From NCBI GenBank assembly GCA_018401745.1, contig JAGYJY010000008.1, positions 31,699 to 95,698 on the forward strand: a DNA stretch of 64,000 nucleotides. The letters are read 5' to 3'. Shown here piece after piece: positions 17,921-58,830 of this stretch (positions are counted from its first letter, which is position 1; each line of letters starts with the position of its first letter). The notes below the pieces were generated by a model. The model saw only the letters and a program-made list of their open reading frames with translations, had not been told where the DNA came from and ran no database searches. The translations under genes were made by a program, and so were the position numbers. The DNA is from Pirellulales bacterium. GTDB taxonomy: Bacteria; Planctomycetota; Planctomycetia; Pirellulales; UBA1268.

Positions 17921-18157
17921 TCATTCCCCTCCGTATTCACTCACATCACGTGACGCACGGGAGAGCACCTCGGCCAGCCGGCCGAGCGCTTCAAGCGTTT
18001 CTTTGACTTTGGGTGTCAGCGGCTCGATGCAGTCTTTATGAAACTGCTTGGCCGTCTGATCGCGCCAGGTATCTTCGGCTGCCTGCCACTTGATATCGAG
18101 TTGCTTGACGGCCAGCGCGAGCTTCGACGCGCCACTGGCGAGATTGCCCGCCTTCAT
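17921..18157 (-). CDS. Small helical WXG100-like protein (78 aa)
   Basis: Two predicted helices around a central TWRDQTAKQF turn, which aligns with STWRDQEHQKF in the 90-aa paralog. ATG overlaps the upstream stop as ATGA. Confidence 0.6.
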   Translation of the reverse strand: MKAGNLASGASKLALAVKQLDIKWQAAEDTWRDQTAKQFHKDCIEPLTPKVKETLEALGRLAEVLSRASRDVSEYGGE

Positions 18158-18776
18158 GCTTCGCCTCCCGCCGTGTTGGCTTGCTCAGCTGGGGCACCTG
18201 ACGCCCTCTCAGCGGCCTTGGTGTCTTCGTCGAGCGAGCGACGCATGCTGCCCTCGCCGGATGTCTCCCCGGCAGCAGTTCCACCGGAAGGGCCCGACAT
18301 CTCACGGTAGGCCTCGAGGGCCTTGAGCATCCGTTCGACCAGTGCCATCGCCTTGGGCACATCGACATCGAGCACCTCGCGGAAGTGCACGAGCCGCACA
18401 CCCGTCTCGCGAAACTGCTGCTGCACGATCGGCGTCCAATGACGGACGGCCTCCGCCTTTTCCTCGGCCACCTGCAGCCGGCGGCGGGCCTTTTCCAGGT
18501 TCTTTTCTCTTCGGTGCAGGCCGGTGGGCCGTCGCCAGTGCTCTTGAAGGTGCGGCACTTCTCGAGGTCTTTCATCGCCTCGTTGACCTTCTCGCCGCGC
18601 CGCCGCACTTCGGCCTTCCAGTAGCCGGCCTGATCGACGGTGATCCACTCCACGCCGCGGCGGCCCTCCAGCTCGACCTCCGACAAGGCCTGACCGCACT
18701 CATACGCAAAGGTGGCCAGCGCCGCCTTGACGAAAGAAAGCGTGTCGATCGAACGGACTTCGGCCTGGCCTGCCAT
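18154..18776 (-). pseudogene. Helical protein of unknown function (about 208 aa if repaired); frame broken once near an A-run
   Basis: ORF 18036..18776 is protein-like only to ...KSTGDGPPACTEEK. ORF 18154..18699 is protein-like only from NLEKARRRLQVAEEKAEAV onward. Adding one A to the run at plus-strand 18503-18506 joins them. Confidence 0.6.
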
Positions 18777-18825
18777 GGAGGCAATCTCCTGCTGAGTATG
18801 AAGCGGAGCAGCTGCGGCGTTTCAC

Positions 18826-19098
18826 TCAACGCTGCTGCATGTATTCCTCAACACGCTCCGCTTTGCGGAGCAGGTAGGGGACATATTCGCCCGTCGACTC
18901 CACGAAACGCCCGAAGGTGGCAAGCTGCTGCTCAAACTCCTCGGAAAACTTCTGGTGCTCCTGGTCGCGCCAGGTCGAGCCGAGATGCTGGAGCTGCCGC
19001 TGCACGGTCTGCATGTGCGTCATCACCTCGCCGCTGAAATGCTTGAGACGCGCCGCGAATCGGCGAAGTTCATCCGGATCGACGATGGCCTGTCCCAT
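18826..19098 (-). CDS. Small helical WXG100-like protein (90 aa)
   Basis: MGQAIVDPDELRRFAARL... follows the ESAT-6/WXG100 layout: an N-terminal 'I.VDP..L..fA' helix, a central W43-R-D45 turn where WXG normally sits, then F..EF and a second helix. Confidence 0.65.
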   Translation of the reverse strand: MGQAIVDPDELRRFAARLKHFSGEVMTHMQTVQRQLQHLGSTWRDQEHQKFSEEFEQQLATFGRFVESTGEYVPYLLRKAERVEEYMQQR

Positions 19099-19275
19099 CT
19101 GCTGCTCCTGTGTCGCTGGCGTTTACCGGTGCTGCGCTTGCCCCATTGGGCCCCATCGGGCACTGTACCCGAGGGCACTGTGCCCGGAACGTTCCCTGGG
19201 CAACCCCTGCCGTCATGATATCGTGGTCAGTGACATCCTTGATACCCCGTGCGTCTCCTCCAGGAGTGTTCTGCC

Positions 19276-20175
19276 ATGGCCACCGCCGACACATCGCCGT
19301 CGCGGCCCGCGACCCCACCAGCCGAAGCCCGAGGCCACGCCCATGGCCATGCTCCTGCGACCGCAAGCGAGGTGTCGCTGGAACCGTCGCATGGCTGGCA
19401 TGTCAGCCACTTCTTCTACCGTTTCGACCGCGACAAACTCGCGGCGATGCCCGAAGCGGCCCGTCGCGCTGGCGGTGAGGCCTTCGTGGCGGCCCTTGCC
19501 AACGAAGGCGACACGGCAGTGCGTCGGCTGCAGACCTGGATCGTGCCGGGCCACAAGGCTGATTTTGCCGTCATGCTGATGGACCCCTCGCCGCTGCGTG
19601 TGGAGGCGGTGCACCAGCGGTTGATGGCAGGGCCGCTGGGACCGGCGATGACGCCCTCGTGGTCGTTTATTGGCCTGACCGAGGTCAGCGAGTATCTGCC
19701 GAATGCCGAGCAGTATGGCGAGCGGCTGATCGAAGAAGGGGAAACCCGCGACAGCCCAACCTTCAAGGCGAAGGTGCAGGGCTACGCGGCTCGTGAGGCC
19801 GGCATGCGGAAGGCCCGCATCGAGCCCGATCTGCCCTCATGGCCAAACGCCTGCTTCTACCCGATGAACAAAAAGCGGAAGGTCGGGGAGAACTGGTTTT
19901 CGCTCCCGCTCGAAGAGCGAACCCGACTGATGGCCGAACATGGCCGCAGCGGGATGAAGTTTGGTGGCCGCGTCTCCCAGCTGATCACCGTCAGCGTCGG
20001 CCTCGACGACTGGGAATGGGGTGTCACCCTCTGGGCCAGCCGGCCCGATTATCTCAAAGAGATCGTCTACACGATGCGGTTTGACGAGGCGAGCGCCCGC
20101 TACGCTGAGTTCGGACCTTTTTACACCGGCTACGTGGCAAGCCCAGCGGAGATTCTGGCCCACTGCAGTGTGTGA
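19276..20175 (+). CDS. Chlorite dismutase-family protein (HemQ/ChdC-like)
   Basis: HGWHVSHFFYRFD, FAVMLMDPS, FYPMNKKR, GLDDWEWGVTLWA are characteristic of the Cld/HemQ family. ATG at 19276. Confidence 0.8.
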   Translation: MATADTSPSRPATPPAEARGHAHGHAPATASEVSLEPSHGWHVSHFFYRFDRDKLAAMPEAARRAGGEAFVAALANEGDTAVRRLQTWIVPGHKADFAVMLMDPSPLRVEAVHQRLMAGPLGPAMTPSWSFIGLTEVSEYLPNAEQYGERLIEEGETRDSPTFKAKVQGYAAREAGMRKARIEPDLPSWPNACFYPMNKKRKVGENWFSLPLEERTRLMAEHGRSGMKFGGRVSQLITVSVGLDDWEWGVTLWASRPDYLKEIVYTMRFDEASARYAEFGPFYTGYVASPAEILAHCSV

Positions 20176-20200
20176 AGCACATCGCAGCGAGCACCGCAGC

Positions 20201-21001
20201 TCAACGACCATCCGCCGTGACGGCCGAGAAGACCAGCTCCACTGGCGTGCCGCGGGGCGGGACGCGGCTGTCGAAGACCTCAAAGAGCAACGCTTCGTTG
20301 GACTGCGAGCTGGCGATGGGCAGGTCGAGCATCGCGGTCGGGAAGTTCGACACGCAGACCAGGTCGCCACCATCGGCCTGATAATATTCCTCGCCCGTGG
20401 CCTCGTCTCGCCAAAACAAACTGCCCGCAAAGACCCAGTCGGTCTCCAGCGGCTTGCCTGTGCGGGTGTTGCGGACCCAGTCCTTGGCATCCCGCTTCTG
20501 AGGCTTGCCTTCGGCATCGGTCCACCGCACCTCAACACGCACCTGCGGGCCTCGCGCGGCACGATACTCCGGTGCGAACTGCACCGGCTCTCCGGGCTGC
20601 ATGCCGATCGCCAACAGACCGGTGTGCACCAGCCGCGCAGACGCATCGACCACCACCACCGATTCGTGCTCTTTCGTACGCCGCGGACAGGCAAAAAACT
20701 CAATCTGGCCCCGCTGCAGCGCCACCTCACCGCCGACCACCACCTGCCCGGCGTCACGATCCAGCCAGACCTTTTCCGTCGGCGAAAGCCGGCTCATCTC
20801 GGGATGCGGATCAGGAGCCGCGGTCGCTTCCGCTGAGGCCTCGTCGTCCGCGTGGGCCAGAGCAGGGCAGAGGATCAGGCCGCTCATCACAGCGACCACT
20901 GCCGCTCCACGCATCAGCGATCGCCACCAGAACACCACGGTTCTCGCGGCTGGCCGGCCCCTCAAAGCGTGCTTGGTGTGACGTCGCAGTCGCACAGTCA
21001 T
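20201..21001 (-). CDS. Secreted YdjY-domain-like protein
   Basis: Signal peptide (AAVVAVMSGLILCPALAHA), then a conserved-looking body (IEFFACPRRTKEHESVV, HTGLLAIGMQPG, ADGGDLVCVSNFPTAMLD). Start uncertain: 21001, 21019 or 20914. Confidence 0.6.
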   Translation of the reverse strand: MTVRLRRHTKHALRGRPAARTVVFWWRSLMRGAAVVAVMSGLILCPALAHADDEASAEATAAPDPHPEMSRLSPTEKVWLDRDAGQVVVGGEVALQRGQIEFFACPRRTKEHESVVVVDASARLVHTGLLAIGMQPGEPVQFAPEYRAARGPQVRVEVRWTDAEGKPQKRDAKDWVRNTRTGKPLETDWVFAGSLFWRDEATGEEYYQADGGDLVCVSNFPTAMLDLPIASSQSNEALLFEVFDSRVPPRGTPVELVFSAVTADGR

Positions 21002-21109
21002 CGTGGTGTTTCCGTCCATGCCGACCGCACCTCCAGGCCTCGCTGTCCCCTTGCCACCGGCTGCCGTGTTGTACCATACGTCGCGACTGCCCCCGCGAGG
21101 AGAGAAGCG

Positions 21110-22871
21110 ATGCCATCCGGCACGACCGAAGCACCCGAAGCCGCCCACCCCACAGCAGACGAAGCAGAGCCAGCGGCGGAGGCCACGGCACAGCCACGCA
21201 CAGCCCGGCAGTGGCGTCCTGGCAAGTCGCTGGTGAGTCGCCGGCTTGAGGCTCTGGCTCTGCGGGCAACGGTGCCGGCACATCGGCAGCAGTGTGCCAA
21301 GCTCGCTCGGCGACTCCAGGCCACGGCTGGCTCAGCGAAGCGGGCAGGGCGGATCGACGCGGCCGTTGCAGCCCTGCTGGCCGACGCTGACACGGGCTCG
21401 GCCGATGGCCTGCTGCTGCTCGAAGCAGCCACCTGGGTCGTTGCCTGGCGGCAGGGCTCCAAGCATGCCGGCAGCACCGCTTCGCTGGAAGCCACGCTGC
21501 TCGCCGAGGCCGACGAGGCAGAGGCCCGCCTGAGTGATGGCGACACCGCCGGCGGTGCATTCGTGCTCGCGGCGAGCCGCCTGCTGCAGGTGAGAACCGG
21601 CAAGCAACGCAGCCTGGCGGAGGCGAGTGTCTGGACCGCCTGCGAGGCGGAGATTATGAGACTCGTCACCTCCTCAGGCGTCGTGTCGCTCGACGACTCA
21701 GCGGCTGTCGTCAGCCGTGTTGCCCGCTGGACCCACATCCGAGATACCGCTGCAGCCGCCGCCAAGGGGGCCAAGGCAAAGCAGGCGTTTGCCCGCAAGG
21801 CTGAGCAACGCTGGAAGAAAGCGATCGCTGCCGCGTTGCGGCTGCTGGGCCCTGGCGGAAAGCCAGTCCCGACAAGCGACACGGCACGGCTCCCGGCCGT
21901 GTTCGGTGATGCGATCGTCCAGGCCGCCGCCCGCCACGGCGGCAAAGCAGTCCGCAAGGCGGCGTCGCTGCTTCGGCTCCCATCGCAAAAGCGGCCCAAG
22001 CGTGAAGCTGGGGCGGTCGACCTCAACCTCGATGATCGCCAGGCAGCAGTCATCGTGCTTCGCAGCAGCTGGCAGGGGCGGCCGATGCGGGTCTTGCTCG
22101 ACTATCGCAGCGAGCAGCCACACCTCGAGGTGGCAGCTGGCAGCCGGATGCTTCTGCACGGCCCATGGCAGTGGCAGGTGCATTCCGGACGTGAACGCCT
22201 CTCCGCCGAGGGACCCTGGACCGTCAGCCACCACGAGGAAGACGACGACGTCACCCTTCTGGTGATTGCCGCGATGCTCACCGGCGGCCTGCGGCTTGAG
22301 CGGCATCTGCTGCTTGGCCGAGCGGATCGCGTGATGCTGCTGGCCGATGCGGTGGTCGACGCTGGCGGCGACCAGGCTCCCACGGGCCTGTCCTACCGAG
22401 GCAGCCTGCCGGTCGCGGCTGGCTGCGACGTAACAGCCGCCGCCGAGACCCGCGAGCTGACCATCGCCGATACCAAGCCCCAGGCGATGCTGATGCCGCT
22501 GGCCTTGCCGGAGTGGAACTGCGGACACACAGAACACACCTGGGGCTGGCAGGCGAGCAGCCGAGCGATCCAGCTCGAACAGCGGTCGCCCGTGCGACGG
22601 CTCTTCGCGCCGGTCTGGGTCGACCTGGAAGCCCGCCGCTTTCGCACCCAGGTCACCTGGCGGCAGCTGACGGTCGCCGACACCCGCGTGATTCTGCGGC
22701 CCGAGCAGGCGGCCGGCTTCCGCATCCAGGCTGCACTCACCCAGTGGCTGCTCTACCGGTCGCTCGACGAACCCCGCAACCGTACCTTCCTCGGCTGCAA
22801 CCTTTCCAGCTTCTTTCGGCTGGGCAAAGCTGGGCGACGACGGACTCGTTTCACAGATGGCCGAATGGTAG
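21110..22871 (+). pseudogene. Large hypothetical protein (possibly heparinase II/III-like C-terminal region); 3' end probably frame-shifted into yggS
   Basis: ATG 21110 is preceded by GAGGAGAG. The sequence is protein-like throughout. As sequenced it reads in frame into yggS. Removing one T from the run at 22814-22816 gives ...SSFFGWAKLGDDGLVSQMAEW and a TAG at 22869-22871. Confidence 0.5.
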
Positions 22872-23635
22872 ACGCTTTTTCTCAAGCCCCTGCCGAAGCG
22901 GCTGACCCCCGCACCGCCCGACTGCGAGCAAACCTCGCTGCGGTTCGCGGTCGCGTGGCCGATGCCTGCGGCAGGGCGGGCAGAAATCCAGACGATGTGC
23001 GTATTGTCGGCGTGAGCAAATACGTGTCTGCCGACGACACTGCCCGCCTCGTCGACTGCGGCCTTCGTGATCTCGGCGAAAGCCGCCCGCAGCTGCTCTG
23101 GGAAAAAGCAGAGGCTCTCGCCAGCCATCCACAAACTCCGCGGTGGCACATGATCGGCCACCTGCAGCGAAACAAACTTCGCCGCACCCTGCCGCTGCTC
23201 TCGCTGCTGCATTCACTCGACAGCCATCGGTTGGCGACGGCGATCTCGGAGGAGGCCGCCAAATCGGGCACGTCTTGCAACGTGCTGATCGAGGTCAATC
23301 TCACCAGTGATCCCGGCCGAACGGGCGTCAGCTTTGCCGAGCTTGAGCCACTCGCCGAGGCTGTCGCTGCCAGCAGTGCGATGCAGCTGTGCGGCTTGAT
23401 GGGGATGGCTGACAGGCCTGACCGGCCGGGCGACTCACCGCGAACACAGTTTGCCCGGCTTCGTGAGGCTCGCGACCGGCTGCAGAGCCTGTTTGCTCCA
23501 CCCACCACTCCCGGTCATGTACGTGGCGAACTCTCGCTCGGCATGAGCGGCGACTTTGAAGAGGCCATCCTCGAGGGGTCGACGATGGTGCGGATCGGCT
23601 CCGTGCTCTGGGAAGGGTTGCTGCCCGAAAGCTGA
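22865..23635 (+). CDS. yggS: YggS-family pyridoxal-phosphate homeostasis protein
   Basis: VRIVGVSKYV (PLP Lys), DLGESRPQ, WHMIGHLQRNK, SLGMSGDFEEAI, VRIGSVLW. Confidence 0.85.
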   Translation: MVDAFSQAPAEAADPRTARLRANLAAVRGRVADACGRAGRNPDDVRIVGVSKYVSADDTARLVDCGLRDLGESRPQLLWEKAEALASHPQTPRWHMIGHLQRNKLRRTLPLLSLLHSLDSHRLATAISEEAAKSGTSCNVLIEVNLTSDPGRTGVSFAELEPLAEAVAASSAMQLCGLMGMADRPDRPGDSPRTQFARLREARDRLQSLFAPPTTPGHVRGELSLGMSGDFEEAILEGSTMVRIGSVLWEGLLPES

Positions 23636-23649
23636 GAGGTGCGGCCGCT

Positions 23650-24130
23650 TCATTCGTCGAATCGCACTTCGAGGATCTCAAAACGGCTCGTGCCAGCCGG
23701 CACCTCGATCTCGACGGTCTCTCCAATTTTTCGACCGAGGAGGCCCTTGGGCGAGCGGGCTCGCCACGTTGATCTTCCCGGCGTCGTAGTCTTCCTCGCC
23801 AGCTCCTACGAGGACAAACTCTTCGTTGTCGCCAAAGTCGAGATCCTTCACGACCACCGTCGCGCCGAAGACCACTTCGCCTGTCGCCTCCTTGGGCCGC
23901 TCCACGAGCACCGCCCGGGCGAGCTTGTCGCGGAGCACGTTGATCTTGGCCTGCAGCATGCCCTGACTCTCGCGAGCCCCGTGGTATTCGGCGTTTTCGC
24001 TGAGGTCACCCTCACTCCGGGCATCGGCGATTCGCTTGGCAACCACGGGCATTTCCACGGTCTCAAGGTGATCGACCTCAGCCTTCAGCTTGTCGTAGCC
24101 GTTTTTGGTCATGGGAATGCGATCAGACAT
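23650..24130 (-). pseudogene. greA: Transcription elongation factor GreA, frame broken by one extra base
   Basis: N-terminus MTKNGYDKLKAEVDHL...GDLSENAEYH is canonical. After SPLAQG the frame yields junk, but deleting one C of the CCC at 23744-23746 restores LLGRKIGETVEIEVPAGTSRFEILEVRFDE and a stop at 23650-23652. Confidence 0.85.
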
Positions 24131-24229
24131 CTCTCTCTCCTCAGTGCGCTCTCACACGAGAGCGTAAATCTCAACAGTGCTATCGCGAGAACCCGCACCA
24201 GCCGTGCGTCGCGACAAAGGAGACGCGAT

Positions 24230-32366: not shown

Positions 32367-34687
32367 ATGTTCATTCTTCATGCAAGCAGCCGGTCTGCCA
32401 ACTCGTTTCACGGTCTCGCGAGCCTGCGACGGGTGCTGACTGTGGCCCTGCTGGCACTCGGGAGTTCCCCTGCCGTGGCAGCCGCAGCCGACACCGCTTC
32501 CACTGGAGAGACGCCGATGCCCGCCACAAACCAGACCACCAGTGACGATCCGCACCTCTGGCTTGAAGAGGTGCTCGGCGACGACGCCCTGGCCTGGGTG
32601 CGGCAACGCAACGAGCAGACACTCGAGCAGCTGGCGAAACGCCCGATGTTCTCCAGCCTTGAGGCGACGCTGCAGACGATTCTCGACGACGACCAGCGGA
32701 TTCCCGCGGTCACGAAGCGGGGCGATTTTTTCTACAACTTCTGGCGAGACAAGACTCATCCGCGAGGCCTCTGGCGCCGGACGACGCTGGCGGAATACCG
32801 TCGCCACGCCCCTGCCTGGGAGGTGCTGCTCGACCTTGATGCCCTCGGTCAGCAGGAAGATGAAAACTGGGTCTGGGCCGGCGCCAAGGTGCTCAGGCCT
32901 GCCTGCAGCCGCGCCCTCGTGCAGCTCTCCAGAGGCGGTGCCGACGCCAGGGTGGTCCGCGAGTTCGACCTGACGACGAAGCAGTTTGTCGATGATGGCT
33001 TTGAGGTGCCCGAGGCGAAGGGCTCGGTCAGCTGGATCGACGACAACCACATCTTCGTGGCCTCCGACTTCGGTCCCGGCTCGATGACCGACTCCGGCTA
33101 CCCACGCACCGTTCGCCTGTGGCAGCGGGGCACACCGCTGGCCGATGCGACCGTGGTCTTTGAGGGCAGCCCTCAGGACATGTCGGTGTCGGCCTTCCAC
33201 GACGATTCCCCTGGCTACGAGCGGGACTACGTGCGGAGGACCCCGTCCTTCTACGCCGACGAGATGTTTGTGCGGGAGGCCGATAGCCGCCTGCGGAAGA
33301 TTGAGGTGCCCGACTCCGCATCCAAGGGCATCTTCCGCGGCCTCCTCACGGTGGAGCTCCGCGAGCCCTGGCAGCATGGCGGCACCACCTATCAGGCCGG
33401 CACGCTGCTGCTGGCAGACCTGGAGTCGTTTCTGGCGGCCGAAAGTGGCACGGTCCCGCCTGAGCAGCGTCCGCTGGCTGTGGCCTTCGAACCCGATGCG
33501 CGGCAGGCCCTGGCCGCAGCGACCTTCACCAAAAACGCGCTGGCGCTGACGATCCTGGCGGACGTGAAGAACCGGGTGGAGGTGATCGACCTCAGCGGCT
33601 GCGACACGGGGTCGCCCGCCGAACGCATCGCTCTGATCCGCCAGACGGTGTCAGACCACCGCATCCTTCGCCGCAGGTCCGGAGATCGGCACCGTCAGCC
33701 TCGGTGCCGTCGACGCCGACGAGTCCGATGAGGTCTTCGTGACCACCACTGGCTTCCTCGAGCCGACCGCACTCGCGCTGGGCTCGCTGGCCTCTCCCGA
33801 AGCCCTGACGGAGCCCCTCAAGGAGCTGCCGAGCTTCTTCGAAACCGCAGGGCTCAGCGTGCAGCAGCACTTCGCCACGAGCGATGACGGCACCCGCGTT
33901 CCCTACTTCCTGATCGGCCCGGCCGAGAAGCTCGCAGGCGCAGGGGCGGGCGACGCAGCCGTGCCATCCGGCAGTCCCACGGTGCTCTATGCCTACGGTG
34001 GCTTCGAGATCTCCCTCCTGCCGCGCTACGACCCTCTTGTTGGCAAGGCCTGGCTGGAGAAGGGCGGGGTGTATGCCATCGCCAACATCCGCGGTGGGGG
34101 CGAGTATGGCCCTCGCTGGCACCAGGCCGCGCTCAAAGCCAACCGGCTGCGGGCCTACGAGGACTGCGCGGCGGTCGCCCGCGACCTCATTGAGCGGGAC
34201 ATCACCACGCCAGCGCAGCTGGCCGTCAAGGGTGGCTCCAACGGTGGCCTGCTGGTGGGCAACATGCTCACCAGCTATCCGCAGCTCTTCGCTGCAACCG
34301 TCTGCCAGGTGCCGCTGCTCGACATGCAGCGGTATAGCCAGCTGCTCGCGGGGGCGTCGTGGATGCAGGAATACGGCAATCCCGACAAGCCAGAGGAGTG
34401 GGCGTTTCTCAAAAACTTCTCCCCCTACCACAAGGTCGAGGAGCGGGGCCTCGCGAGGCCGGCCTATCCGATCACGCTGCTGCTGACCTCCACTCGTGAT
34501 GACCGCGTGCATCCTGGGCACGCCCGCAAGATGATGGCCAAGCTGGAAGCAGCTGGGGCATCCGGCCCTCTACTACGAAAACATCGAGGGAGGCCATGGA
34601 GGCGCAGCGACCAACAAGCAGCAGGCCTTCATGCAGTCGCTGGCCTGGACATTTCTTGCCGAGCAGCTGGGCCTGACGAGCGACTGA
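32367..34687 (+). pseudogene. Prolyl oligopeptidase (S9) family serine peptidase, reading frame broken twice
   Basis: Signal peptide and propeller half in ORF 32367..33731; catalytic half (GGSNGGLLVG nucleophile region, DDRVHP) in ORF 33739... The first break lies within 33637-33690. Removing one G from the GGGG at 34555-34558 restores ...EAAGHPALYYENIEGGHGGAATNKQQAFMQSLAWTFLAEQLGLTSD with a stop at 34685-34687. Confidence 0.8.
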
Positions 34688-35532: not shown

Positions 35533-35991
35533 ATGAACATCAACGTTCGTTCGCGGCAGAGCTTAAGCGGGGGAATTCCAGCACTTGACGACCGGTTGGC
35601 AGCACGCCGGCGGCTTCCGGCAGAGCGATCAGCCAGCCCTCTTGACGGTCAGGAAAGCGGCGAAAAATCGCACGAGACCGGGCAGAAAGCCCTCATCGAC
35701 ATCGACGACGCTGCCCCCTGGAGGCGACGAGGGCGACTCGGGATCGACACGATGGAGCCGCCTCCTCGACAGTGGGGTGAGTTTGACGACGACGCCTCGC
35801 TGCTTGGGCTGGCCGGCTACGACCACGATGCGGTGAGAATCATCATGGCGGCTCAACTCCGGCTCGGCTTGCTGAGAATGAGGCGACAGACCGCCGAGGT
35901 TCGCGATCGCGCGCGACGCATCGCTCGAGCGAGAGACATGCTGCTGCGAACCGCCGTCCAGCTGCAGCACCCGCCGGCATCACCACGCTAA
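35533..35991 (+). CDS. Hypothetical Arg-rich protein (weak call)
   Basis: ATG at 35533, divergent from the ECF sigma gene. Third-position G/C bias is visibly weaker than in neighbouring genes. No recognisable motifs. Confidence 0.3.
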   Translation: MNINVRSRQSLSGGIPALDDRLAARRRLPAERSASPLDGQESGEKSHETGQKALIDIDDAAPWRRRGRLGIDTMEPPPRQWGEFDDDASLLGLAGYDHDAVRIIMAAQLRLGLLRMRRQTAEVRDRARRIARARDMLLRTAVQLQHPPASPR

Positions 35992-36240: not shown

Positions 36241-37062
36241 ATGCGTGCAAACGTCTGTGGGCAGCAGAGGCGACGGGCCGCTGCCGTGAGGATCGCTGTT
36301 GAGTCGGGCCGCTGCCTCAGCGACTTCGCATGGCTGCCTACGAAACGGCTGTCTGCTGCGGCGTTGACAGCCGCTACCGCGGTGGCGATCACCACGCTGA
36401 GCATCGGCCCGACGCTCTGCCAGGCCGACGAGCCTTCCGCAGCCGGCAACGACCAGCCGGCGGCCGTTGCGGAAGCGACCGACAGCTGGCAGCCTCTCTT
36501 CGACGGGAAGACCCTCGCAGGCTGGAAATCGACGGCGTTTGGCGGCGAGGGAGAAGTCTCGGTGAAGGAAGGTGCGATTCGCATAGAACGCGGCTCAGAA
36601 CTCAGCGGCATCACCTGGCAGCAGGAGTTTCCCAAAGACGGCTACGCGATCACCCTCGAGGCGAGCCGCGTCGACGGCTACGACTTTTTCTGCGGGCTGA
36701 CCTTTCCTGTGGGTGAAGAGCCGTGCAGTTTCATCGTCGGCGGCTGGGGCGGAGGCGTGGTCGGTCTCTCCAGCATCGATGGAGCCGATGCGGCCCACAA
36801 CGACACCACCGAATGGAAGGAGTTTGAAACGGGCAAGTGGTATCGCATCACGATCGAAGTCGGAAAAGACGCGATCCGCTGCTGGATCGGCGATGAGCAG
36901 CTGGTCGATCAGCCGCGCGATGGCCATGAGTTTTCGATTCGCCCAGAGGTGTTTCTCTCCAAGCCTCTGGGCATCTCCTGCTACGGCACGGTGGCCGCCA
37001 TTCGTGACGTCCGCTACCGACTTCTCGATGCCAAAAGCGACACCGACCGCCCAAGTAAATGA
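36241..37062 (+). CDS. DUF1080 (3-keto-disaccharide hydrolase-like) secreted protein
   Basis: WQPLFDGKTLAGWK, a GAIRIE...G region, a WYRITIEV core and a terminal IRDVRYRLL. Signal-like N-terminus. ATG 36241 is preceded by GAGGGGG. Confidence 0.75.
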   Translation: MRANVCGQQRRRAAAVRIAVESGRCLSDFAWLPTKRLSAAALTAATAVAITTLSIGPTLCQADEPSAAGNDQPAAVAEATDSWQPLFDGKTLAGWKSTAFGGEGEVSVKEGAIRIERGSELSGITWQQEFPKDGYAITLEASRVDGYDFFCGLTFPVGEEPCSFIVGGWGGGVVGLSSIDGADAAHNDTTEWKEFETGKWYRITIEVGKDAIRCWIGDEQLVDQPRDGHEFSIRPEVFLSKPLGISCYGTVAAIRDVRYRLLDAKSDTDRPSK

Positions 37063-37081
37063 TTCGTGCGGCTAGCTGTCT

Positions 37082-37112
37082 GTGGAAAAAGCCATCCAAG
37101 GCCTTTTTCCAC
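37082..37112. terminator. Possible bidirectional hairpin between convergent genes
   Basis: GTGGAAAAAGCC-ATCCAA-GGCCTTTTTCCAC forms a 12-13 bp stem with one bulge between the DUF1080 stop and the mdh stop. No clean trailing U-run. Confidence 0.35.
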
Positions 37113-37291
37113 CTGGGCAACACCCGAAAACGCCGAGGGTTTTCAGGGTTGCCGATCGCCGCATCCTGCGGCGGCGGACTATTTCCACAGTCTGCTAGCG
37201 AGGACAAGCACCCGTGGACACGCACCGACGGCTTCATGAGCCGCGATGACGACCGCGACTGGTGCGCGGAGCCCGCATACCAGCTGGCGGC

Positions 37292-42607: not shown

Positions 42608-42634
42608 CGGTGGCCTCGGGTGAGTAGGTTCGTT

Positions 42635-45299: not shown

Positions 45300-46125
45300 G
45301 CGGCAGGCTCCTCACCGTGAGACGTGGAGAGAGTGGAGAGGTCAGCGTCGTCATCGCTGACCGGCGTGGTCACCAACCGCACACCGGCCTGGGCAACCTT
45401 CTTCCGCCATGGCGGTGCGAGGCCCTCGTCGACCACGAGGCAGTTGATATCGCTGAGCCCACAGACGAGCGTCAGGCTCCGACGTCCAAACTTGGAGCTG
45501 TCGGCCACAACAATCACGCGGCTGCCAGCCTTGAGCATTGCCTGCTCGGTTTCGGCCAGCAGCAGATGGGCGTTGAAGAGGCCTTCCTCGGCGATTCCGG
45601 CAGCGGAGAGCACGGTCGTGGAGACGTGCAGCCGGCCGAGCAGTTCGTTGGCGTAGGGGCCGAGGCAGACGCCTGTTTTGGGTGAGACGTAGCCCCCGAG
45701 CAGAACGAGATCAGTCCGCGACTCCGAGACGAACAGGTTTGCCACCGGCAGGCTGTTGGTGACCACCTGCAAAGGCCTGCCGACAAGCTGGCGGGCCACT
45801 TCGTAGGTGGTGGTGCCGCCATCGAGCAAAACGGTCTCGCCATCCTCGATTTCTTCGGCGGCGGTAGCCGCGATCGCCCGCTTGGCCGCCCAGTTGGCTG
45901 GCTGCCGCTGGTCAAACTCCTCGAGCTTCGGGCTCGGCCACCGCGATAGACGGCTCCACCATGCGTCCGCCGAGCGATGCCCTGCTCCTCGAGGAAGTCG
46001 AGATCGCGACGAATGGTCGATTCTGAAACCGCCAGCTCGCGGACAAGTTCGTCCAGCGACGCAAAGCCGCGGACGCGGATCAGGTCGGTGAGGCGGTGCC
46101 GCCGTTGCTGGGAGTGTGCTGGCAT
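45296..46125 (-). pseudogene. DeoR-family transcriptional regulator of the BMC locus, frame broken once
   Basis: The HTH half (SLDELVRELAVSESTIRRDLDFLEEQGIARRTHGGAVY) is in ORF 45514..46209. The sugar-phosphate-binding half (KRAIAATAAEEIEDGETVLLDGGTTT...) is in ORF 45296..46174. One missing base near 45935-45940 joins them. The stop overlaps the pduL ATG as ATGA. Confidence 0.8.
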
Positions 46126-46367
46126 GGTGAAACCCCGAATGCCACCAGCATGACTCAACGCGATCATTTTGCAACCGTTTTCAATCGCGTCCCGCATGGT
46201 TTCAATCAAAAACTCACAAACGACTGCCAGGAAGCAACAAAAACGTGGCTCGCCACCACACTGCGCACTCTGCGCAAACCCTGCGGCCTCCCGTCGCCCC
46301 CAAATCTAGCCCACAAAAACCCGCAAGAAAGAAAACCACCAAAAAAGGCCACAATCAGACCGCTTCC
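46126..46367 (-). promoter_or_regulatory. Comparatively AT-rich upstream region of the deoR/BMC operon (candidate promoter/operator)
   Basis: A local drop in GC directly 5' of deoR. Contains a direct repeat of GTTTCAAT(C) (CCGTTTTCAATCG / TGGTTTCAATCA). No consensus promoter identified. Confidence 0.3.
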
Positions 46368-46775
46368 CGGGACGGGCCCGCGGGTGCCGCCCGCCGTGAA
46401 CGGGACGGGTCCGCGGGTACCGCGCCGTGAACGGGACGGGTCCGCGGGTACCGCGCCGTGAACGGGACGGGTCCGCGGGCCGCGAAGCGGCCGCGGCACA
46501 GCCGAGGTGCCTGCGGCACCCGTGGACCCGTCCCGCTTGCGTAGAGGCTGACCGGCCGCTGGCCGCCGCGTCCGCGAGCGGACAGGCCCGGCCTGCAAAG
46601 CGCTTCAGCGAGCGGGTGAGCCCGGGACCTGACCCGCCGGCGTACAGGAGCCGAGCGACGCCCGGAGGGCCAAAGCGCAAGCGGATATCCGAGCCGAGCC
46701 GCAGGCCGCCTGCGAGGGCCCGCAGCGAGCGTCCGGAGGGGCAGCCCCGGGCTCACCCCGAGCGGCCCACCCACC
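46368..46775. repeat. Composite GC-rich repeat element, copy A
   Basis: Three tandem units of about 31 nt (CGGGACGGGTCCGCGGGTACCGCGCCGTGAA). Next comes a long imperfect hairpin (GGGACGGGTCCGCGGG...CCCGTGGACCCGTCCC). A 3' module is shared with copy B (GGGTGAGCCCGGG, CCCGGAGGGCNAAAGCG, GGGCTCACCCCGAGCGGCCCACCC). The element ends at the purN stop codon. Confidence 0.8.
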
Positions 46776-47411: not shown

Positions 47412-50901
<3,490 letters not shown>

Positions 50902-50906
50902 GCGTC

Positions 50907-51742: not shown

Positions 51743-51814
51743 GTTGGTCCATCGGCTCGCGGAACGGCCGACCGGCAGTCGACCACGGGTGATCCAGCAA
51801 CAGAGACGCGGCCC

Positions 51815-52105
51815 CTACTTCTTTTTCCCAGGCGGCATCTCCGGCGTCTCTTCGTCGGGATGATCCCAGTCTGGATCGTCGGGCTCATCCTCGAAATCGT
51901 CGTCGAAATCGTCATCAAAATCGTCGAAGTCGCTCTCGTCGTCTTCGAGAGGATCGTCGATCGTGCCCTCATCGACACTGTCGTCGTCGTCATCCCCCGA
52001 GGAGCTCGCGACGGGCACAAGCGGCCCAGCGGCCCACCGCGAAAGCAGGCTCACGTCACTCCACCGATCGCGTCGCCGGGGAAAAAACACTGTTGTGCAA
52101 AGCAT
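51815..52105 (-). CDS. Hypothetical small poly-acidic protein (weak call)
   Basis: 96-codon ORF ending ...DDDDDSVDEGTIDDPLEDDESDFDDFDDDFDDDFEDEPDDPDWDHPDEETPEMPPGKKK. No Shine-Dalgarno sequence; start uncertain. Confidence 0.35.
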   Translation of the reverse strand: MLCTTVFFPRRRDRWSDVSLLSRWAAGPLVPVASSSGDDDDDSVDEGTIDDPLEDDESDFDDFDDDFDDDFEDEPDDPDWDHPDEETPEMPPGKKK

Positions 52106-52391
52106 GTGCGGATTCTCATAACAAGCCACCCGCAGGCTCAAAGCCCGCCGGACGTAAGAGAGTGAAGAGAAGCATTCTACCGATTCCTCGTCAACCCGCT
52201 GCCGCAGGCAAACCCGCTTTCCACCGCCTGTCCCTGCCGCAGCGATGCATTTCCTGCCAACGACGTGAGCGGGAAGACCGCGCGCGGGTGGTCCGGCTCG
52301 GCAGGCGGCAAAAGTCGCGTCGCTGGGCCAGGATAGGCCAAACGCTCCTCGAGCGTTCGCCGACCCGCCGAGCCTCCACTTTCCTGTCAAT

Positions 52392-53049
52392 GACGGGAAC
52401 GGGACGGTCCTGGGCCGCAAAGCGGATACACACGCAAGCGGGACGGGTCCTCGGCCGCGAAGCGGATACACGCAGCGGGACGGGTCCTCGGCCGCAAAGC
52501 GGCTCGCTGCCGAGTGCCTCCGGCACCCGAAGACCCGTCCCGTTCAATCCGCCTCCGGCACCCGAAGACCGTCCCGTTCAACCGCCTCCGGCACCCGAAG
52601 ACCCGTCCCGCTCGACCGCCCGCCGCACCGCACGCCGCCGACCCCACTCGGCCCTGTCCACCCACTCCCGGCCGCAGGCCGCCCTGCAGCGGACAGAACG
52701 AACGGGACGGGTCCTCGGGCCGCGAAGCGGCCTCGGCGAAGCCGAGGTGCCTCGCGGCACCCGAAGACCCGTCCCGCTTGCACGCCCCACCCCGCCCAGC
52801 CCCGCCTTCCCCGGCCGCAGATCGCCGCGAAGCGGCGAACAGGCCGTCCCTAAACCGTAAGCGAGGGGTGAGCCCGGGCCGAATGAGCCGGCCTTGCAGT
52901 CGAGCGAAGCCCGGAGGGCGAAAGCGAGAATGCACGAGTGAGCGAAGCCAGGATGGCGAAGCGAACGCTCGGCGAATCGGCTTGGGCTCACCCCGAGCGA
53001 CCCCGAACGCTCGGCGAATCGGCCTGGGCTCACCCCGAGCGGCCCACCC
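52392..53049. repeat. Composite GC-rich repeat element, copy B
   Basis: Three direct CGGGACGG(G)TCCTCGGCCGC(G/A)AAGCGG units are followed by three inverted CTCCGGCACCCGAAGACC(C)GTCCCG units. A further complete hairpin sits at 52703-52776. The shared 3' module follows, with a 2 x 41-nt tandem duplication (52964-53045). The element ends at the argJ stop codon. Confidence 0.8.
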
Positions 53050-54273: not shown

Positions 54274-54356
54274 GGAAGCTGGCGGATCCGGGGGAGTGAG
54301 TGGAGGAGGGAGTTCGGGAGCCCGCGAAATGCACACACGATTGAGTGCAGCGGTCT

Positions 54357-55367
54357 CTAGAGCAAGCCTGCTGTTTCCGGCAGGCCAAACACGCAGTTGA
54401 AGTTTTGCACGGCAGCTCCTGCGGCCCCTTTGACGAGGTTGTCGAGGCAGCTGATCAGCAGGATGCGGCCCCGCACCACCCGCACGGTGATGTCGCAGAA
54501 GTTGGTGTCGACGGTGTCTTTCGTGGCTGGCAGGTGATCAACCACGCGGACAAACCGCTCGGCGTCGTAGGCCTGGTGGAGCACCGCCGCCACCTCCGCC
54601 TCGGTCACGGCTCGCGTGGGCCGGGCATAGATCGTGGAGAGGATGCCCCGGTCCATCGGGGCAAGCTGCGGCGTGAAGATCACCTCGGGCCGCGAGCCGG
54701 CATGCCGGGCAATGACCTGCTCGATCTCCGGAGTGTGGCGATGCCGGCCAACGTTGTAGGCCGACATGCTCTCGTTGCATTCAGGGAAATGGGTCATCAG
54801 TTTCGGCGACCGACCCGCTCCGCTGACGCCACTCTTGGAGTCGATGATGATGTCGTCACATTCGATCAGCCCCGCCTTCACCAGCGGGGCCAGCGGCAGG
54901 ATCGCCGAGGTTGAATAGCAGCCCGGATTGGCGACGAGCGCGGCATCCTTGAGCAACGGCCGAAAGAGTTCGGGCAGCCCATAGGCCACCTGCCCGAGCC
55001 GGGACGGGTCGACATGCTCGAGGCCATACCACTCGAGATACGTCGCCGCATCGTCAAGCCGGTAGTCGGCGCTGAAGTCAATCACGGTCGCGCCCGCGTC
55101 GAGCAGGGCGGGCACCACAGAGGCCGATGCGGTGTGCGGGAGGCAGCTAAACACGCACGACGCCCGCGCGACCACTTCCGCTGGCTCAAGATCTTCCAGT
55201 GGGATCTCCAGCCGCCCCACGAGCGACGGATGCACGGTGGAGATCGGCGGCTGGCCTTCCTGGCGGCTGGTGGCAACCGTGATCCGCACCTCGGGGTGCC
55301 GCAGGAGAATCTTCACCAGCTCAAGGGCCGTGTAGCCCGTCGCACCGAGCACCGCAACGTCGATCAT
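54357..55367 (-). CDS. argC: N-acetyl-gamma-glutamyl-phosphate reductase
   Basis: [22 protein letters not shown]; catalytic Cys context (ANPGCYSTS). Confidence 0.9.
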
Positions 55368-55534
55368 GTCGCTTCCAGGGATGGGGGTGTCAGGTCGGCA
55401 GCAGTCATACGGAGATGCTGCATTCCGCCGCTCCTGCGGGCATCGGCATCATACGATGCGACCGGCCAGTTTCGGCAGGGGGCTTTCCCGCCGCGGTTGC
55501 CGCCGTCTCGGGCCTGTTCTGCAGGCCAGCCCTC

Positions 55535-56188
55535 TCACACAGCGCGGTCGATCAGCCGCTGCTGAAAGAGCCTGATCAGCCGTCGGGCTACCTGCGTCTT
55601 TGTGCCCGCGGCTGTGGCCACCTCGCCCTCGGCATCGAGCACGCAGATCGCTGTGCGGGCTGCCTCGATCGCTGGAATATCGTTGACCACAATCAGATCG
55701 CACCGCTTGCGGCGGAGCTTGGCAATCGCTCGCTCGCGATCTCCGCCGACCTCCAGCGCAAAGGCGACGCACCAGGCCCGACGGCCCGACGGCTGCAGCT
55801 CACGCACCCGCTCGGCAAGGGTGGCCACGATGTCGACCGTCGGCACCAGCCGCAGCGTGAGGCCGCGGCCATGCCGTGGAATCTTGCCGAGCTGGCGGGC
55901 TGCCGGCTCAAAGTCGCAGGGGGCGGCTGCCGCGATCACACCGTCTACTTTTGGCAGCAGGGCGAGGCTCGCCTCGAGCATCTCGCGTGTTGTCGTGACC
56001 CGACTGACCCGCGCGGCCTGCGGATAATCCACCGCCACCGGTCCGCTGACGATGCTCACGCGGTGGCCTGCCTCGAGGGCCGCCGCCGCCAGCGCCTTCC
56101 CCATGCGGCCGCTTGAGCCGTTGCTCAGGTAGCGGACGTCGTCGAGGTAGGCCCGGGTGGGGCCGCTCGTTAGCAGAATGTGAGCCAT
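55535..56188 (-). CDS. coaB: Phosphopantothenate--cysteine ligase (CoaB domain)
   Basis: ILLTSGPTRAYLDDVRYLSNGSSGRMG is the CoaB signature. ATG lies 22 nt after the coaC stop, in a different frame. Confidence 0.8.
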   Translation of the reverse strand: MAHILLTSGPTRAYLDDVRYLSNGSSGRMGKALAAAALEAGHRVSIVSGPVAVDYPQAARVSRVTTTREMLEASLALLPKVDGVIAAAAPCDFEPAARQLGKIPRHGRGLTLRLVPTVDIVATLAERVRELQPSGRRAWCVAFALEVGGDRERAIAKLRRKRCDLIVVNDIPAIEAARTAICVLDAEGEVATAAGTKTQVARRLIRLFQQRLIDRAV

Positions 56189-56210
56189 GACGTGTTCCGC
56201 AGCTGATCGT

Positions 56211-56858
56211 TCACGACACGCCGGGCTTCGGCAGCTCACCACCGGCAAGCACCCGCGCGATCTCGCTGGCGATCGCCTCGGGCTCCGCCATGCGGCCAGC
56301 GCCCTCCCGTCGACAGGCCAGCCAGCCGCTGACTGGCTCGATGATGCCGAGGCCATCCTCCACGAGCTGCCGCACGTTCCGCTGCACGGCGGGCTTCGCC
56401 CACATCGCCGCGTTCATCGCGGGCGCGAGGATCACTGGGCACTCAGCCGCGAGCAGGAGCGTGGTCAGCAGGTCGTCAGCCACACCGTGAGCAGCTTTTG
56501 CCAGAAAATCGGCCGTGGCCGGTGCGACCACAACGAGATCTGCCCCTGCAGCCAGTTCGATGTGGCCGCCGAGCGGATGTCGCCCGGGGTCAAAGAGCCG
56601 GCTGGCCACAGGACGCGACGTCAGCGCGGCAAATGTTGCCTCCCCTACAAACGCGGTGGCAGCATCAGTCAGCACCGCAGTCACGCCAACAGACTGCTTC
56701 ACCAAGAGGCTCGCCAGCATGGCGGCCTTGTAGGCCGCCACGCCACCCGCCACTCCGAGGACGACCTCGCGGCCTGCAAGCGCGGGATACCCATCGGCAG
56801 GCGAAACCGCCTGCTTACGAGCGGCTTCGTCGCGGCCAAACTCAGAGGATGGAGGCAT
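56211..56858 (-). CDS. coaC: Phosphopantothenoylcysteine decarboxylase flavoprotein (CoaC domain)
   Basis: [45 protein letters not shown] 56858 overlaps the rpoZ 3' end by 17 nt. Confidence 0.8.
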
Positions 56859-57105
56859 CGAAGTCGAGCGGCCCACCCGCCTCGGGCGACTCGCCGGTGA
56901 TCCGCAGATTGCTCGACGTGTCGAGAAAAATCTTATCCTGCCGAATCTCCTCGATCACGATCTGCATCTTGTCGTCCGACTTGATGTCGACCAGCGGCCG
57001 CCCACCTGCATTGAGAGCCACCATCCGCTTCTGAATCAGCGTTGAGAGCTTGAATCGGCCGCCAACCTTGTTGACGATCTCTTCTTCACGCAACTCGTCA
57101 ATCAT
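56842..57105 (-). CDS. rpoZ: RNA polymerase omega subunit
   Basis: Small protein with [13 protein letters not shown]. It has the conserved position downstream of gmk. ATG 57105 is preceded by GGAG. Confidence 0.8.
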
Positions 57106-57210
57106 GCCTGTAAACTCCAAAACCAAAAATAACTTACACACGCTCTTCGAAAACAGCCCTCAGACTCCCTCTCCGAAACCACCCGCTGCCGGGGATGGCT
57201 CACCAGCCTG

Positions 57211-57900
57211 TCACGCCTGTGGCGACCGAGAGACCGCGCTGGCCGAAGCGGCTCGCTCCGAAACCTGGCCGGCTCGCGGCTCTCCACTCTTCATGTCCGC
57301 ACCACCGTCGTCCGCACCACAGGCCGTAGAGAGCCCTGCCTGACGCAGGATGCTCACGATCGTGCCAACCGCCTCATCGACGTTCTCATTGACCACCCGA
57401 TGGCGATAGAGATGCGCCTGCCCGAGTTCACTTCGGGCCACCTCCAGCCTTCGTTCAATCGCTTCGGGAGACTCGGTTCCACGACGCGTCAGCCGCTCGT
57501 CGAGTTGCTCAGGATGAGACGGCTCCACGAAGATGGTGACCGCCTCTGCATACTGCTCCAGCACTGAAAGTGTACCTTCCACATCGATCTCCAACACCAC
57601 CCAGCGGCCTGCTGCCAGCCGAGGAGCGACCTCATCGACGAGCGTGCCATACCAGGAGTCGCGGCCATACACCCGGCAACACTCGAGAAACTCACCATTC
57701 TCGCGACGACGGGCGAACTCATCGGAAGGGAGAAAGTGGTAGTCGATCCCGTCTTGCTCGCCAGCCCGCGGAGGCCTCGTGGTAGCCGACACGCTTGGGA
57801 TCAACTCCGGCAGCCGCTCCAGCAGCATCCTCAGAATCGTGGTCTTGCCCACGCCTGAGGGGCCGGAAATCACAACGAGCCTTCCTGGATGAATGGACAT
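57211..57900 (-). CDS. gmk: Guanylate kinase with a C-terminal extension
   Basis: VISGPSGVGKTT P-loop; SATTRPPRAGEQDGIDYHF. Confidence 0.85.
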   Translation of the reverse strand: MSIHPGRLVVISGPSGVGKTTILRMLLERLPELIPSVSATTRPPRAGEQDGIDYHFLPSDEFARRRENGEFLECCRVYGRDSWYGTLVDEVAPRLAAGRWVVLEIDVEGTLSVLEQYAEAVTIFVEPSHPEQLDERLTRRGTESPEAIERRLEVARSELGQAHLYRHRVVNENVDEAVGTIVSILRQAGLSTACGADDGGADMKSGEPRAGQVSERAASASAVSRSPQA

Positions 57901-57948
57901 CTGTTCCCTACCGTTTTTCCGGCGAGTATACACCGCAGTCCCGCAGTG

Positions 57949-58830
57949 TCACTCAATATTCTGCACGAGTTCCCGGATCTGCTCGACCGTCGACTTCAGA
58001 TCGACCGCCGTTTGTGAAATGGCGACGTCCGCCGATTTGGAGGCGATCGTGTTGACCTCCCGAGCCAGTTCCTGCGCGAGAAAGTCGAGCGATCGTCCAG
58101 GGCTCTCCTCGCCCAGAAGCCGCTCAACCTGGTCGACATGACTTTCCAGCCGGACCAGCTCTTCAGCGACATCCGTGCGGTCGGCGATGATCGCCATCTC
58201 GCGGGCAAGATCGACCGAAGAGACCGCCTCCGGGTGGCCATCGAGCACCCGCTCGAGCCGGTCGCGAAGCTTCTGCCGGTGGGCATCGAGCATCTCGGGA
58301 AGCCGCTGCCGAATGCCGCCCACCCGCTGGCGGATCTCGCCACACCAGCTGTGAATGGAGGCCGTCATCGCAGCCCCTCCGCAACCCGCATGCTCTGCAG
58401 GCTCTCCACTGCCTGCCGCAGGGTCTCCTCGATCAGCGGCCACTGCCGCTCCAGGCTGGAAGCATCTGCTCGCTGCTCCACCACGACTCCCGGCAGCGAG
58501 AGCAGGCTGGTCACCGTCGGCGGGATGTGCAGGCCCCGGCTTTCGGAAAACGCCATCAGATCGGAGAGATAGCTCTCGAGCTGATCGACATCGAGCTGGC
58601 GGCGGCCAGGGTGCGTTGCGGCCAGAGAAGTCGATCGACACATGCACGCTGCCGCGACGGATCGTCTCGCGGAGAACGGCCTCGATTCTGGCCTCAAACA
58701 TCGCGAGCCCTTCGCGGGACCGCGTGGTCAGTTTGAAGAAGCGGTTGTTGACAGCCCGCACCTCGGCCCGGCAGGTCGTGCCCTCGCGGGTGCACGTCGC
58801 CTCACCACAGCCGCTCATGCTCGTTGCCAT
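57949..58830 (-). pseudogene. yicC: YicC-family stress-induced protein, two compensating frame breaks
   Basis: The N-terminus (SMSGCGEA...VRAVNNRFFKL) and C-terminus (GRSLDFLAQELAREVNTIASKS...EQIRELVQNIE) are in the 293-aa frame. The middle is protein-like only in ORF 58365..58697 (QLDVDQLESYLSDL...RVAEG). The breaks lie at GGG 58609-58611 (one extra base) and CCCC 58373-58376 (one missing base). Confidence 0.8.

Follow-up and report, generated by a model that had tools for sequence, protein, structure and literature searches.

Long-read assemblies are well known to contain consensus indels that turn genes into apparent pseudogenes (Kastor, PMC12007338; an evaluation of R10.4, PMC9262707). 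Such nanopore and PacBio CLR assembly errors resemble what is seen in the Pirellulales (Planctomycetota) DNA analysed here (the whole 64-kb stretch, hereafter the window), where small indels private to one assembly split, fuse and scramble conserved genes. The resemblance extends to a concentration of deletions in homopolymers at normal substitution accuracy, to a contig whose length stands out against that of the species' short-read contigs, and to lesions that were found and mended by comparison with close references.

Homopolymer deletions are said to dominate nanopore assemblies, whereas a large share of the events in the window are context-free insertions, a pattern that PacBio CLR-type or low-coverage consensus error fits better. 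Two further systems invite comparison. Flow-based chemistry rarely yields insertions without an adjacent identical base; the window resembles 454/Ion Torrent homopolymer miscalls in that under-called runs of 4–6 identical bases lead to frameshifts, but differs from them in that 8 of its 13 insertions lack an identical adjacent base. Mycobacterium leprae and recent host-restricted pathogens are examples of decaying genomes with true pseudogenes, and the window recalls them in its high density of frameshifted housekeeping genes. Unlike in those genomes, selection here is unrelaxed, nonsense mutations are absent, no event is common to relatives, and four of the hits fall in one essential gene, that of an aminoacyl-tRNA synthetase.

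Frame breaks and their distribution

Intact proteins of same-species contigs were compared with the window by tblastn, and lesions were placed by nucleotide alignment and site-by-site inspection. The comparison set consisted of 22 same-species contigs (L001–L021 and L102) with 93–98.7% identity to the window, mostly MEGAHIT/SPAdes-style short-read contigs, which derive from different samples, Baltic and marine metagenomes among them, and from different assemblers, represent at least three lineages and cover each site 2–10 times. The closest relatives are 1.3–6% diverged from the window and are other strains; when an IleS fragment was compared with one genome per species, the matches listed were all relatives at no more than 80% amino-acid identity (Pirellulales MAGs). 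A tally of private indels from a multiple alignment was set aside, its group B count being inflated by structurally divergent contigs. The comparison covered 45 window genes and 42.7 kb of coding DNA, while in the ~12 kb of the window that has no relatives (1–8.7 kb and 29–32.3 kb) no gross frameshift was found by Pfam coverage.

Fifteen frame-changing indels were identified in the compared coding DNA (Table 1), a rate of about one event per 2.9 kb, affecting 10 of the 45 genes (22%). The same gene-level test flagged one of ~271 gene instances in the relatives (Fisher P = 1.3e-8), and this sole case, in L016, proved to be a run of N in a gapped scaffold, leaving no genuine frameshift among the relatives. 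The earlier note on this DNA had called for a comparison with closely related genomes; in it, all 15 coding indels are missing from every same-species contig that covers the site, each site being intact in those contigs. The events are somewhat clustered, nine of them lying within 45.9–51.8 kb and no coding event falling in 24–33 kb or 35–45 kb. Private single-base indels also occur between genes, where a part of them may reflect true variation between strains. A collection of ~15 billion proteins has a single instance of each truncated product (PNP, GreA and IleS), all on one 122,819-bp NCBI contig, while the intact forms are present on tens of contigs.

Table 1. Indels of the window relative to same-species contigs
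Feature	Difference in the window	Position	Strand	Relatives differing from the window	Effect or remark
aat (Leu/Phe-tRNA protein transferase)	extra base (A on + strand)	9566	-	9/9	near 3' end
eccC (EccC/FtsK-SpoIIIE ATPase)	GGG vs GGGG, 1-bp deletion	17175-17177	-	9/9	
hyp207 (207-aa type VII secretion (T7SS)-associated gene)	TTTT vs TTTTT, 1-bp deletion	18503-18506	-	10/10	two-frame tblastn match
hyp586 (586-aa hypothetical gene upstream of yggS)	extra G outside homopolymer	22829	+	10/10	11 codons before gene end
greA	TT vs T, 1-bp insertion	23747-23748	-	9/9	~30 last residues of 159 off frame
S9 prolyl-oligopeptidase-family gene	extra C outside homopolymer	33646	+	7/7	
S9 peptidase, second frameshift	extra A outside homopolymer	34551	+	7/7	4 nt ahead of GGGG 34555-34558
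Between aldehyde dehydrogenase and EutN genes	extra T	40781	.	10/10	intergenic example
DeoR-family regulator, microcompartment locus	extra TT, 2-bp insertion	45927-45928	-	10/10	
ileS	CC vs C, 1-bp insertion	48259-48260	-	L002, L004, L102	C-terminal 283 residues in third frame
ileS	extra A outside homopolymer	49793	-	L002, L004, L102	N-terminal ~368 residues parted from middle 511
ileS, compensated pair	extra G	49917	-	L002, L004, L102	paired with 49952-49956
ileS, compensated pair	GGGGG vs GGGGGG	49952-49956	-	L002, L004, L102	paired with 49917
Purine-nucleoside phosphorylase (PNP)	one base lost	between 51164 and 51165	-	L002, L004, L102	~86 last residues of 278 off frame
yicC	CCCC vs CCCCC, 1-bp deletion	58374-58377	-	L001, L102	regains frame lost at 58609
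yicC	GGG vs GG, 1-bp insertion	58609-58611	-	L001, L102	
Other intergenic sites	private 1-bp indels	~35467, 38269, 46244, 46365, 51794, 51812, 52407, 57124			

All 11 frame breaks listed in the earlier note are real: each appears as a two-frame tblastn split (for YicC, through repair) and corresponds to an indel of 1–2 bp against the relatives, 0–15 nt from the coordinate given there. That list was incomplete, as it lacked four coding events, namely those in eccC and aat and the two members of the compensated pair in ileS.

Consequences for individual genes

Four separate indels fall within 1.7 kb of ileS. Residues 880–1162 of the relatives' protein match in frame −1, downstream of the insertion at 48259, and the first IleS tblastn match owes its lower identity to the compensated pair, between whose members about 11 codons are scrambled. 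In the relatives IleS is an uninterrupted protein of 1162 aa containing tRNA-synt_1, Anticodon_1 and DUF5915, and a tblastn search of the 64-kb window found no second ileS. Other conserved genes are split more simply: PNP matches at residues 1–193 in frame −1 and at 190–278 in frame −3; GreA at residues 1–129 in frame −1 and at 128–159 in frame −2; and the DeoR-family regulator at residues 1–90 in frame −2 and at 90–299 in frame −1. EccC, 1349 aa in relatives, is divided into pieces of ~200 aa and 1149 aa (residues 1–202 in frame −3, 201–1349 in frame −2), and the adjacent hyp207, which lies between the WXG100 gene and eccC, is the "T7-like gene" of the earlier note. Against a 620-aa reference, the S9 peptidase passes from frame +3 to +1 at residue 274 and from +1 to +2 at residue 577, with its true stop near 34684.

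The two indels in yicC leave an ORF of normal length (293 aa) in which residues 75–152 are scrambled between 58609 and 58374; repair of both sites raises its identity to a relative from 218/293 as written to 290/293. The earlier note had named the CCCC run, but the interval given for it, 58373–58376, is off by one.

Frame breaks near gene ends have created longer ORFs. The insertion at 22829 deletes the hyp586 stop codon and fuses this gene in frame to yggS as a 927-aa ORF (20852–23635), in which hyp586 residues 1–575 and YggS residues 1–256 both match in frame +2; the relatives' copies of these genes are in different frames and share 7 nt. The gene caller's choice of start, and no lesion, explains the short yggS calls in L012, L019 and L020. 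The insertion at 9566 replaces the last 2 residues of Aat, which matches over residues 1–237 and is off frame thereafter, and extends the ORF from the 239 aa of relatives to 335 aa with a tail running antisense through cinA. The hyp586-yggS fusion and the long aat tail are thus by-products of indel errors, and the distrust expressed earlier toward the N-terminal extension of yggS and the aat tail was warranted. A similar warning about coaC/coaB was unnecessary: four independent assemblies (L001, L102, L103 and L104) likewise have them as two genes, and the split is genuine.

Indel spectrum and selection

Deletions and insertions differ in context. Six of the 10 private 1-bp deletions lie in runs of at least 4 identical bases, a class of sequence that accounts for 3.6% of bases (P = 4e-7), while insertions match a neighbouring base in 5 of 13 cases, about the chance level. 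Homopolymer runs at the sites are no longer than 6 nt, and inspection by eye revealed no common sequence motif at insertion sites, such as would accompany a methylation-motif error. About half of the insertions have no association with homopolymers, and nanopore or pyrosequencing error less typically takes this form.

The earlier description of the breaks as single-base homopolymer indels therefore holds for the deletions but fails for most insertions and for deoR, where two bases were gained. Among the 11 listed lesions, three are in pre-existing runs (T5 to T4 at 18503–18506, C5 to C4 at 58374–58377 and GG to GGG at 58609–58611), two are single-base duplications (23747 and 48259), and the PNP deletion shortens a run that had no more than 1–2 bases. 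At the remaining sites (22829, 33646, 34551, 45927–45928 and 49793; 5 of the 11) bases unlike either neighbour were inserted, and the homopolymers named for them are convenient repair points and not the lesions.

The strain behind the window is a real and separate one, ~2–4% diverged from other assemblies of its species. Contig L014, of comparable divergence, has 298 private codon changes against 277 in the window, with a private nonsynonymous/synonymous ratio of 0.30 against 0.33, and carries no coding frameshift; the window itself has no private nonsense codon. The defect is thereby shown to be confined to indels, without an excess of substitution errors. When the sequence past the breaks is taken in its ancestral frame, the count is 144 synonymous to 44 nonsynonymous changes, a ratio similar to the 227:64 of intact genes (P = 0.74) and far from the neutral expectation of ~72% nonsynonymous (P = 3e-43). 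As judged from these codon counts, the affected genes are shown to be under normal purifying selection, with no relaxation past the breaks.

Origin of the frame breaks

The frame breaks are very probably consensus indel errors of one Pirellulales assembly and not features of the organism, a reading drawn from sequence comparison. The breaks in ileS, greA, PNP and the other genes are attributed to the assembly because about twenty independent same-species assemblies have every gene intact. According to this model, the genes of the strain itself are intact, a base would have been dropped from some homopolymer runs of 4–6 during sequencing or consensus calling, and single bases, once two bases, would have been inserted at essentially arbitrary positions. 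Each error would shift the frame, with four kinds of outcome: (i) split genes (ileS, eccC, S9 peptidase, PNP, deoR, greA and hyp207); (ii) a fusion (hyp586-yggS); (iii) a false C-terminal extension (aat); and (iv) scrambled sequence within an otherwise open frame, over residues 75–152 of yicC and over the 11-codon patch in ileS. The indel-only profile, the combination of homopolymer deletions with context-free insertions, and the long 122.8-kb contig suggest an insufficiently polished long-read assembly.

The significance of these consensus errors is practical and not biological. Gene calls of this assembly are unreliable, with a frame error in roughly every 3 kb of coding DNA and about one-fifth of compared genes affected, and ORFs that are split, fused, extended or oddly divergent (hyp586-yggS, the aat tail, the yicC core) should not be taken for biology or entered into protein databases as novel variants. 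Strain-level substitutions can be trusted. So can the coaC/coaB split and the microcompartment locus, both backed by independent assemblies, and same-species contigs allow a confident repair of the window.

In principle, any of the indels could have arisen very recently as a true mutation on the branch that leads to the window. Genuine pseudogenisation of very recent date, in a mismatch-repair-deficient hypermutator or at the onset of genome decay, with essential functions supplied by paralogues or co-occurring cells, would account for indels confined to a lineage whose branch is genuinely distinct; mismatch-repair loss likewise gives homopolymer deletions, and relatives hold occasional real nonsense alleles, in aldolase (L007, L009), eccC (L017) and chlorite dismutase (L018). 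We nevertheless regard it as highly improbable, since the codon ratio past the breaks matches that of intact genes, neither nonsense mutations nor a nonsynonymous excess accompany the indels, most insertions lie away from repeats, unlike slippage mutations, and none of the events is common to any of the 22 related contigs. Such a lineage would also have been hit in 22% of the compared genes, greA and PNP among these, and four times in ileS, a gene of single-copy type. In its most literal form, this proposal would have a Pirellulales lineage in nature, possibly a hypermutator defective in mismatch repair and caught within a few generations, carry ~15 new frameshifts in 43 kb of coding DNA, four of them in ileS, and survive by paralogues, recoding or cross-feeding, which we hold to be less probable still. 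The preference of the earlier note for sequence error over true pseudogenes is borne out by the privacy of the indels against up to 10 assemblies per site, the unrelaxed selection, the lack of nonsense codons and the fourfold hit on ileS.

Restoration of frame by programmed ribosomal frameshifting or transcriptional slippage, as in prfB, dnaX and endosymbiont poly(A) tracts, has in its favour only that full-length products could be had by shifting the frame by +1 or −1 at the individual sites. It is exceedingly improbable and is effectively refuted by non-conservation, as relatives 96–98.7% identical have single-frame genes at every site. Moreover, the sites have neither a common motif nor a long slippery run, most insertions being outside runs, and the directions of shift are mixed and include a 2-bp insertion. 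An Rfam scan of the window found no frameshift element and no other RNA family, and the tRNA scan was likewise empty, so that no recoding element or RNA gene accounts for any site.

The converse, a correct window set against short-read metagenome assemblies with errors or chimeras at these sites, has next to no probability: strain collapse can occur in metagenome assemblies, and a few relatives have N-gaps or nonsense alleles, but up to 10 independent assemblies, from different assemblers and samples and from three diverged lineages, agree against the window at all sites, and their versions are uninterrupted proteins with full Pfam architectures, as in IleS.

Frame-changing indels and the contigs of relatives

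The window has a G+C content of ~66% and a planctomycete-type gene set comprising dnaG-rpoD, ileS, argCJ, dnaK, a WXG100-EccC cluster and a microcompartment locus (BMC shell proteins, EutN, aldehyde dehydrogenase, PTAC, acetate kinase, class II aldolase and a DeoR regulator). The closest genomes among the matches listed in a one-per-species collection, all Pirellulales MAGs, show at most 80% IleS identity. Exact-sequence look-ups with intact ArgC, an EutN, WXG100 and then RpoZ retrieved 25 contigs of relatives (L001-L021 and L102-L105) from ENA metagenome assemblies, two NCBI MAGs and Logan assemblies. Identity to the window is 93-98.7% for 24 of these and 87% for the 585-bp L105, and jointly they span 8.8-29.0 kb and 32.5-64.0 kb. 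Contig names (k141_, NODE_..._cov_) point to short-read assembly with MEGAHIT and SPAdes.

In the relatives' contigs, each of the genes concerned forms one uninterrupted ORF whose Pfam architecture is as expected (IleS, 1162 aa; PNP, 278 aa; DeoR, 299-326 aa; S9 peptidase, ~770 aa; GreA, 159 aa; YggS, 256 aa; YicC, 293 aa; EccC, ~1350 aa). In the window, three-frame translation showed ileS (minus strand) traversing three frames, and a codon-usage frame plot revealed same-strand frame switches at all positions where an earlier note had proposed breaks. Lesions were mapped by tblastn of 45 intact proteins of relatives against the window, together with base-level alignments and coordinate checks. 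All 11 proposed breaks correspond to real frame-changing indels, 0-15 nt from where they had been placed. Four additional events were found, in eccC, in aat and as a compensated pair in ileS, giving 15 per 42.7 kb of compared coding DNA.

Frame-changing indels in the window relative to the contigs of relatives
Gene	Position	Change
aat tail	9566	+1
eccC	17175-17177	G4 -> G3
207-aa T7SS-associated gene	18503-18506	T5 -> T4
586-aa gene upstream of yggS	22829	+1
greA	23747-23748	T -> TT
S9 peptidase	33646	+1
S9 peptidase	34551	+1
deoR	45927-45928	+2
ileS	48259-48260	C -> CC
ileS	49793	+1
ileS	49917	+1
ileS	49952-49956	G6 -> G5
PNP	51164/51165	-1
yicC	58374-58377	C5 -> C4
yicC	58609-58611	GG -> GGG

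Nine events fall within 45.9-51.8 kb, while in the ~12 kb without a close relative (1-8.7 and 29.0-32.5 kb) Pfam coverage showed full-length domains and no gross frameshift, which suggests that the errors are somewhat clustered. Intergenic DNA holds ~10 more private 1-2 bp indels (found in the window alone among same-species contigs), part of which are probably true strain differences, since relatives vary there too. A +1/-1 pair 5 nt apart at 35864-35869 (GCAAGCCGAG versus GCAGCCGCAG in 9/9 relatives) alters two codons of a putative 149-aa hypothetical ORF (35542-35991, plus strand) and may be a further compensated consensus error.

Selection, frequency and error spectrum

Private codon changes of the window, scored in the ancestral frame across the 8.8-29 kb block, comprise 208 synonymous and 69 nonsynonymous changes and no nonsense mutations. 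The ratio is on par with that of L014, a matched lineage of similar divergence (298 private codon changes versus 277 in the window), so substitution errors are not in excess. The window represents a real strain in its own right. L014 carries four private indels, all intergenic or in-frame. Relative to the other contigs, segments downstream of the frameshifts show 144 synonymous to 44 nonsynonymous changes in the ancestral frame, as against 227:64 in intact genes (P = 0.74), and the neutral expectation (~72% nonsynonymous) is rejected (P = 3e-43). These segments are conserved like intact genes, which means that the ancestral frame was the one translated during practically the entire period of divergence; the frameshifts are thus either artefacts or mere generations old.

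Disruption affects 10 of 45 window genes versus 1 of ~271 non-self gene instances in relatives (Fisher P = 1.3e-8), and that sole 'frameshift' is an N stretch within a scaffold. Of the ~15 billion proteins catalogued, the truncated PNP, GreA and IleS forms account for exactly one entry apiece; all three lie on one 122,819-bp NCBI contig and lack a protein accession. Their intact counterparts are found on tens of contigs. It is very improbable that the indels are real mutations of very recent date: 15 independent brand-new frameshifts would be needed, four of them in ileS, with no older frameshift, without nonsense changes and without any counterpart in 22 related contigs, a natural history that is not credible. 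The lack of a decay signal downstream, the lack of nonsense changes and the absence of the indels from those 22 contigs support the earlier note's preference for sequence error over true pseudogenes, and on this comparison of sequences the frame breaks are almost certainly a sequencing or assembly artefact rather than a biological phenomenon.

The deletions are homopolymer under-calls in runs of 4-6; six of the ten private 1-bp deletions lie in runs of at least 4, which make up 3.6% of bases (P = 4e-7). The 13 insertions look context-free: two lengthen an existing run, three double a single base and the other eight, including a 2-bp one, are unlike either neighbour. The homopolymer label previously applied to all breaks thus holds for the deletions only; elsewhere the named runs are just spots at which a second, opposite change brings the frame back. 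Gene-fragmenting indels of poorly polished long-read consensus are a well-described error class (PMC12007338, PMC9262707). A spectrum confined to indels, found on a contig of unusual length, resembles this class, and from these two features we infer insufficiently polished long-read consensus as the source.

The same frame test detected four internal stops in the relatives' short-read assemblies: in the microcompartment class II aldolase of L007 and L009 (two samples; ~7566-8456), in eccC of L017 (~11943; GAG->TAG, ~20 nt away from where the window has its eccC indel) and in a chlorite-dismutase-family gene of L018 (~9156). These may be real population-level nonsense alleles.

Consequences for individual ORFs

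The yicC ORF is of normal length, yet residues 75-152 are nonsense in the window, and identity to a relative rises from 218/293 as written to 290/293 with both sites mended. The suspected N-terminal extension of YggS is false: ORF 20852-23635 (927 aa) joins the 586-aa gene to yggS through the insertion at 22829, and in relatives the two occupy separate frames with a 7-nt overlap. The doubtful aat tail (335 aa versus 239) likewise results from the insertion listed for that gene. Distrust of the coaC/coaB split was misplaced. Adjacent, separate coaC (215 aa, flavoprotein decarboxylase) and coaB (217 aa, DFP ligase domain) occupy 55538-56858, in place of the usual fused coaBC; the split is genuine, because the genes are apart in four independent assemblies (L001, L102, L103, L104) and the window has no indel against them there.

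Other features of the region

A type VII secretion-like cluster (13726-19098, minus strand), kept in all same-species contigs of this planctomycete, encodes WXG100 (90 aa), 207-aa and 78-aa proteins and an EccC/FtsK-SpoIIIE ATPase (~1350 aa); the 207-aa and 78-aa genes have no Pfam matches on record. In relatives, a 238-aa hypothetical gene (717 nt) lies between ldh and a 270-aa 3-keto-disaccharide-hydrolase-like gene; tblastn gave no match to it at window 37045-37290, where only ~250 nt are present, which reflects either loss or replacement in this strain or else a stretch left out of the assembly. An in-frame 12-nt insertion relative to L001 in the secG C-terminal region (58975-58986) and 3- or 6-nt in-frame variation between strains in the GGT-repeat (glycine-rich) tail of an RRM RNA-binding protein (10808-10822) look like genuine polymorphisms.

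A REP-like palindromic repeat family (core CGGGACGGGTCC, complement GGACCCGTCCCG; 13 matches in the window versus 3.4 expected) occupies two intergenic regions, 46359-46535 and 52397-52791, as tandem 31-37-nt units and inverted pairs. Two relatives' short-read contigs stop inside the 52.4-kb block. In L102, ~140 bp stand in place of ~780 bp of the window.
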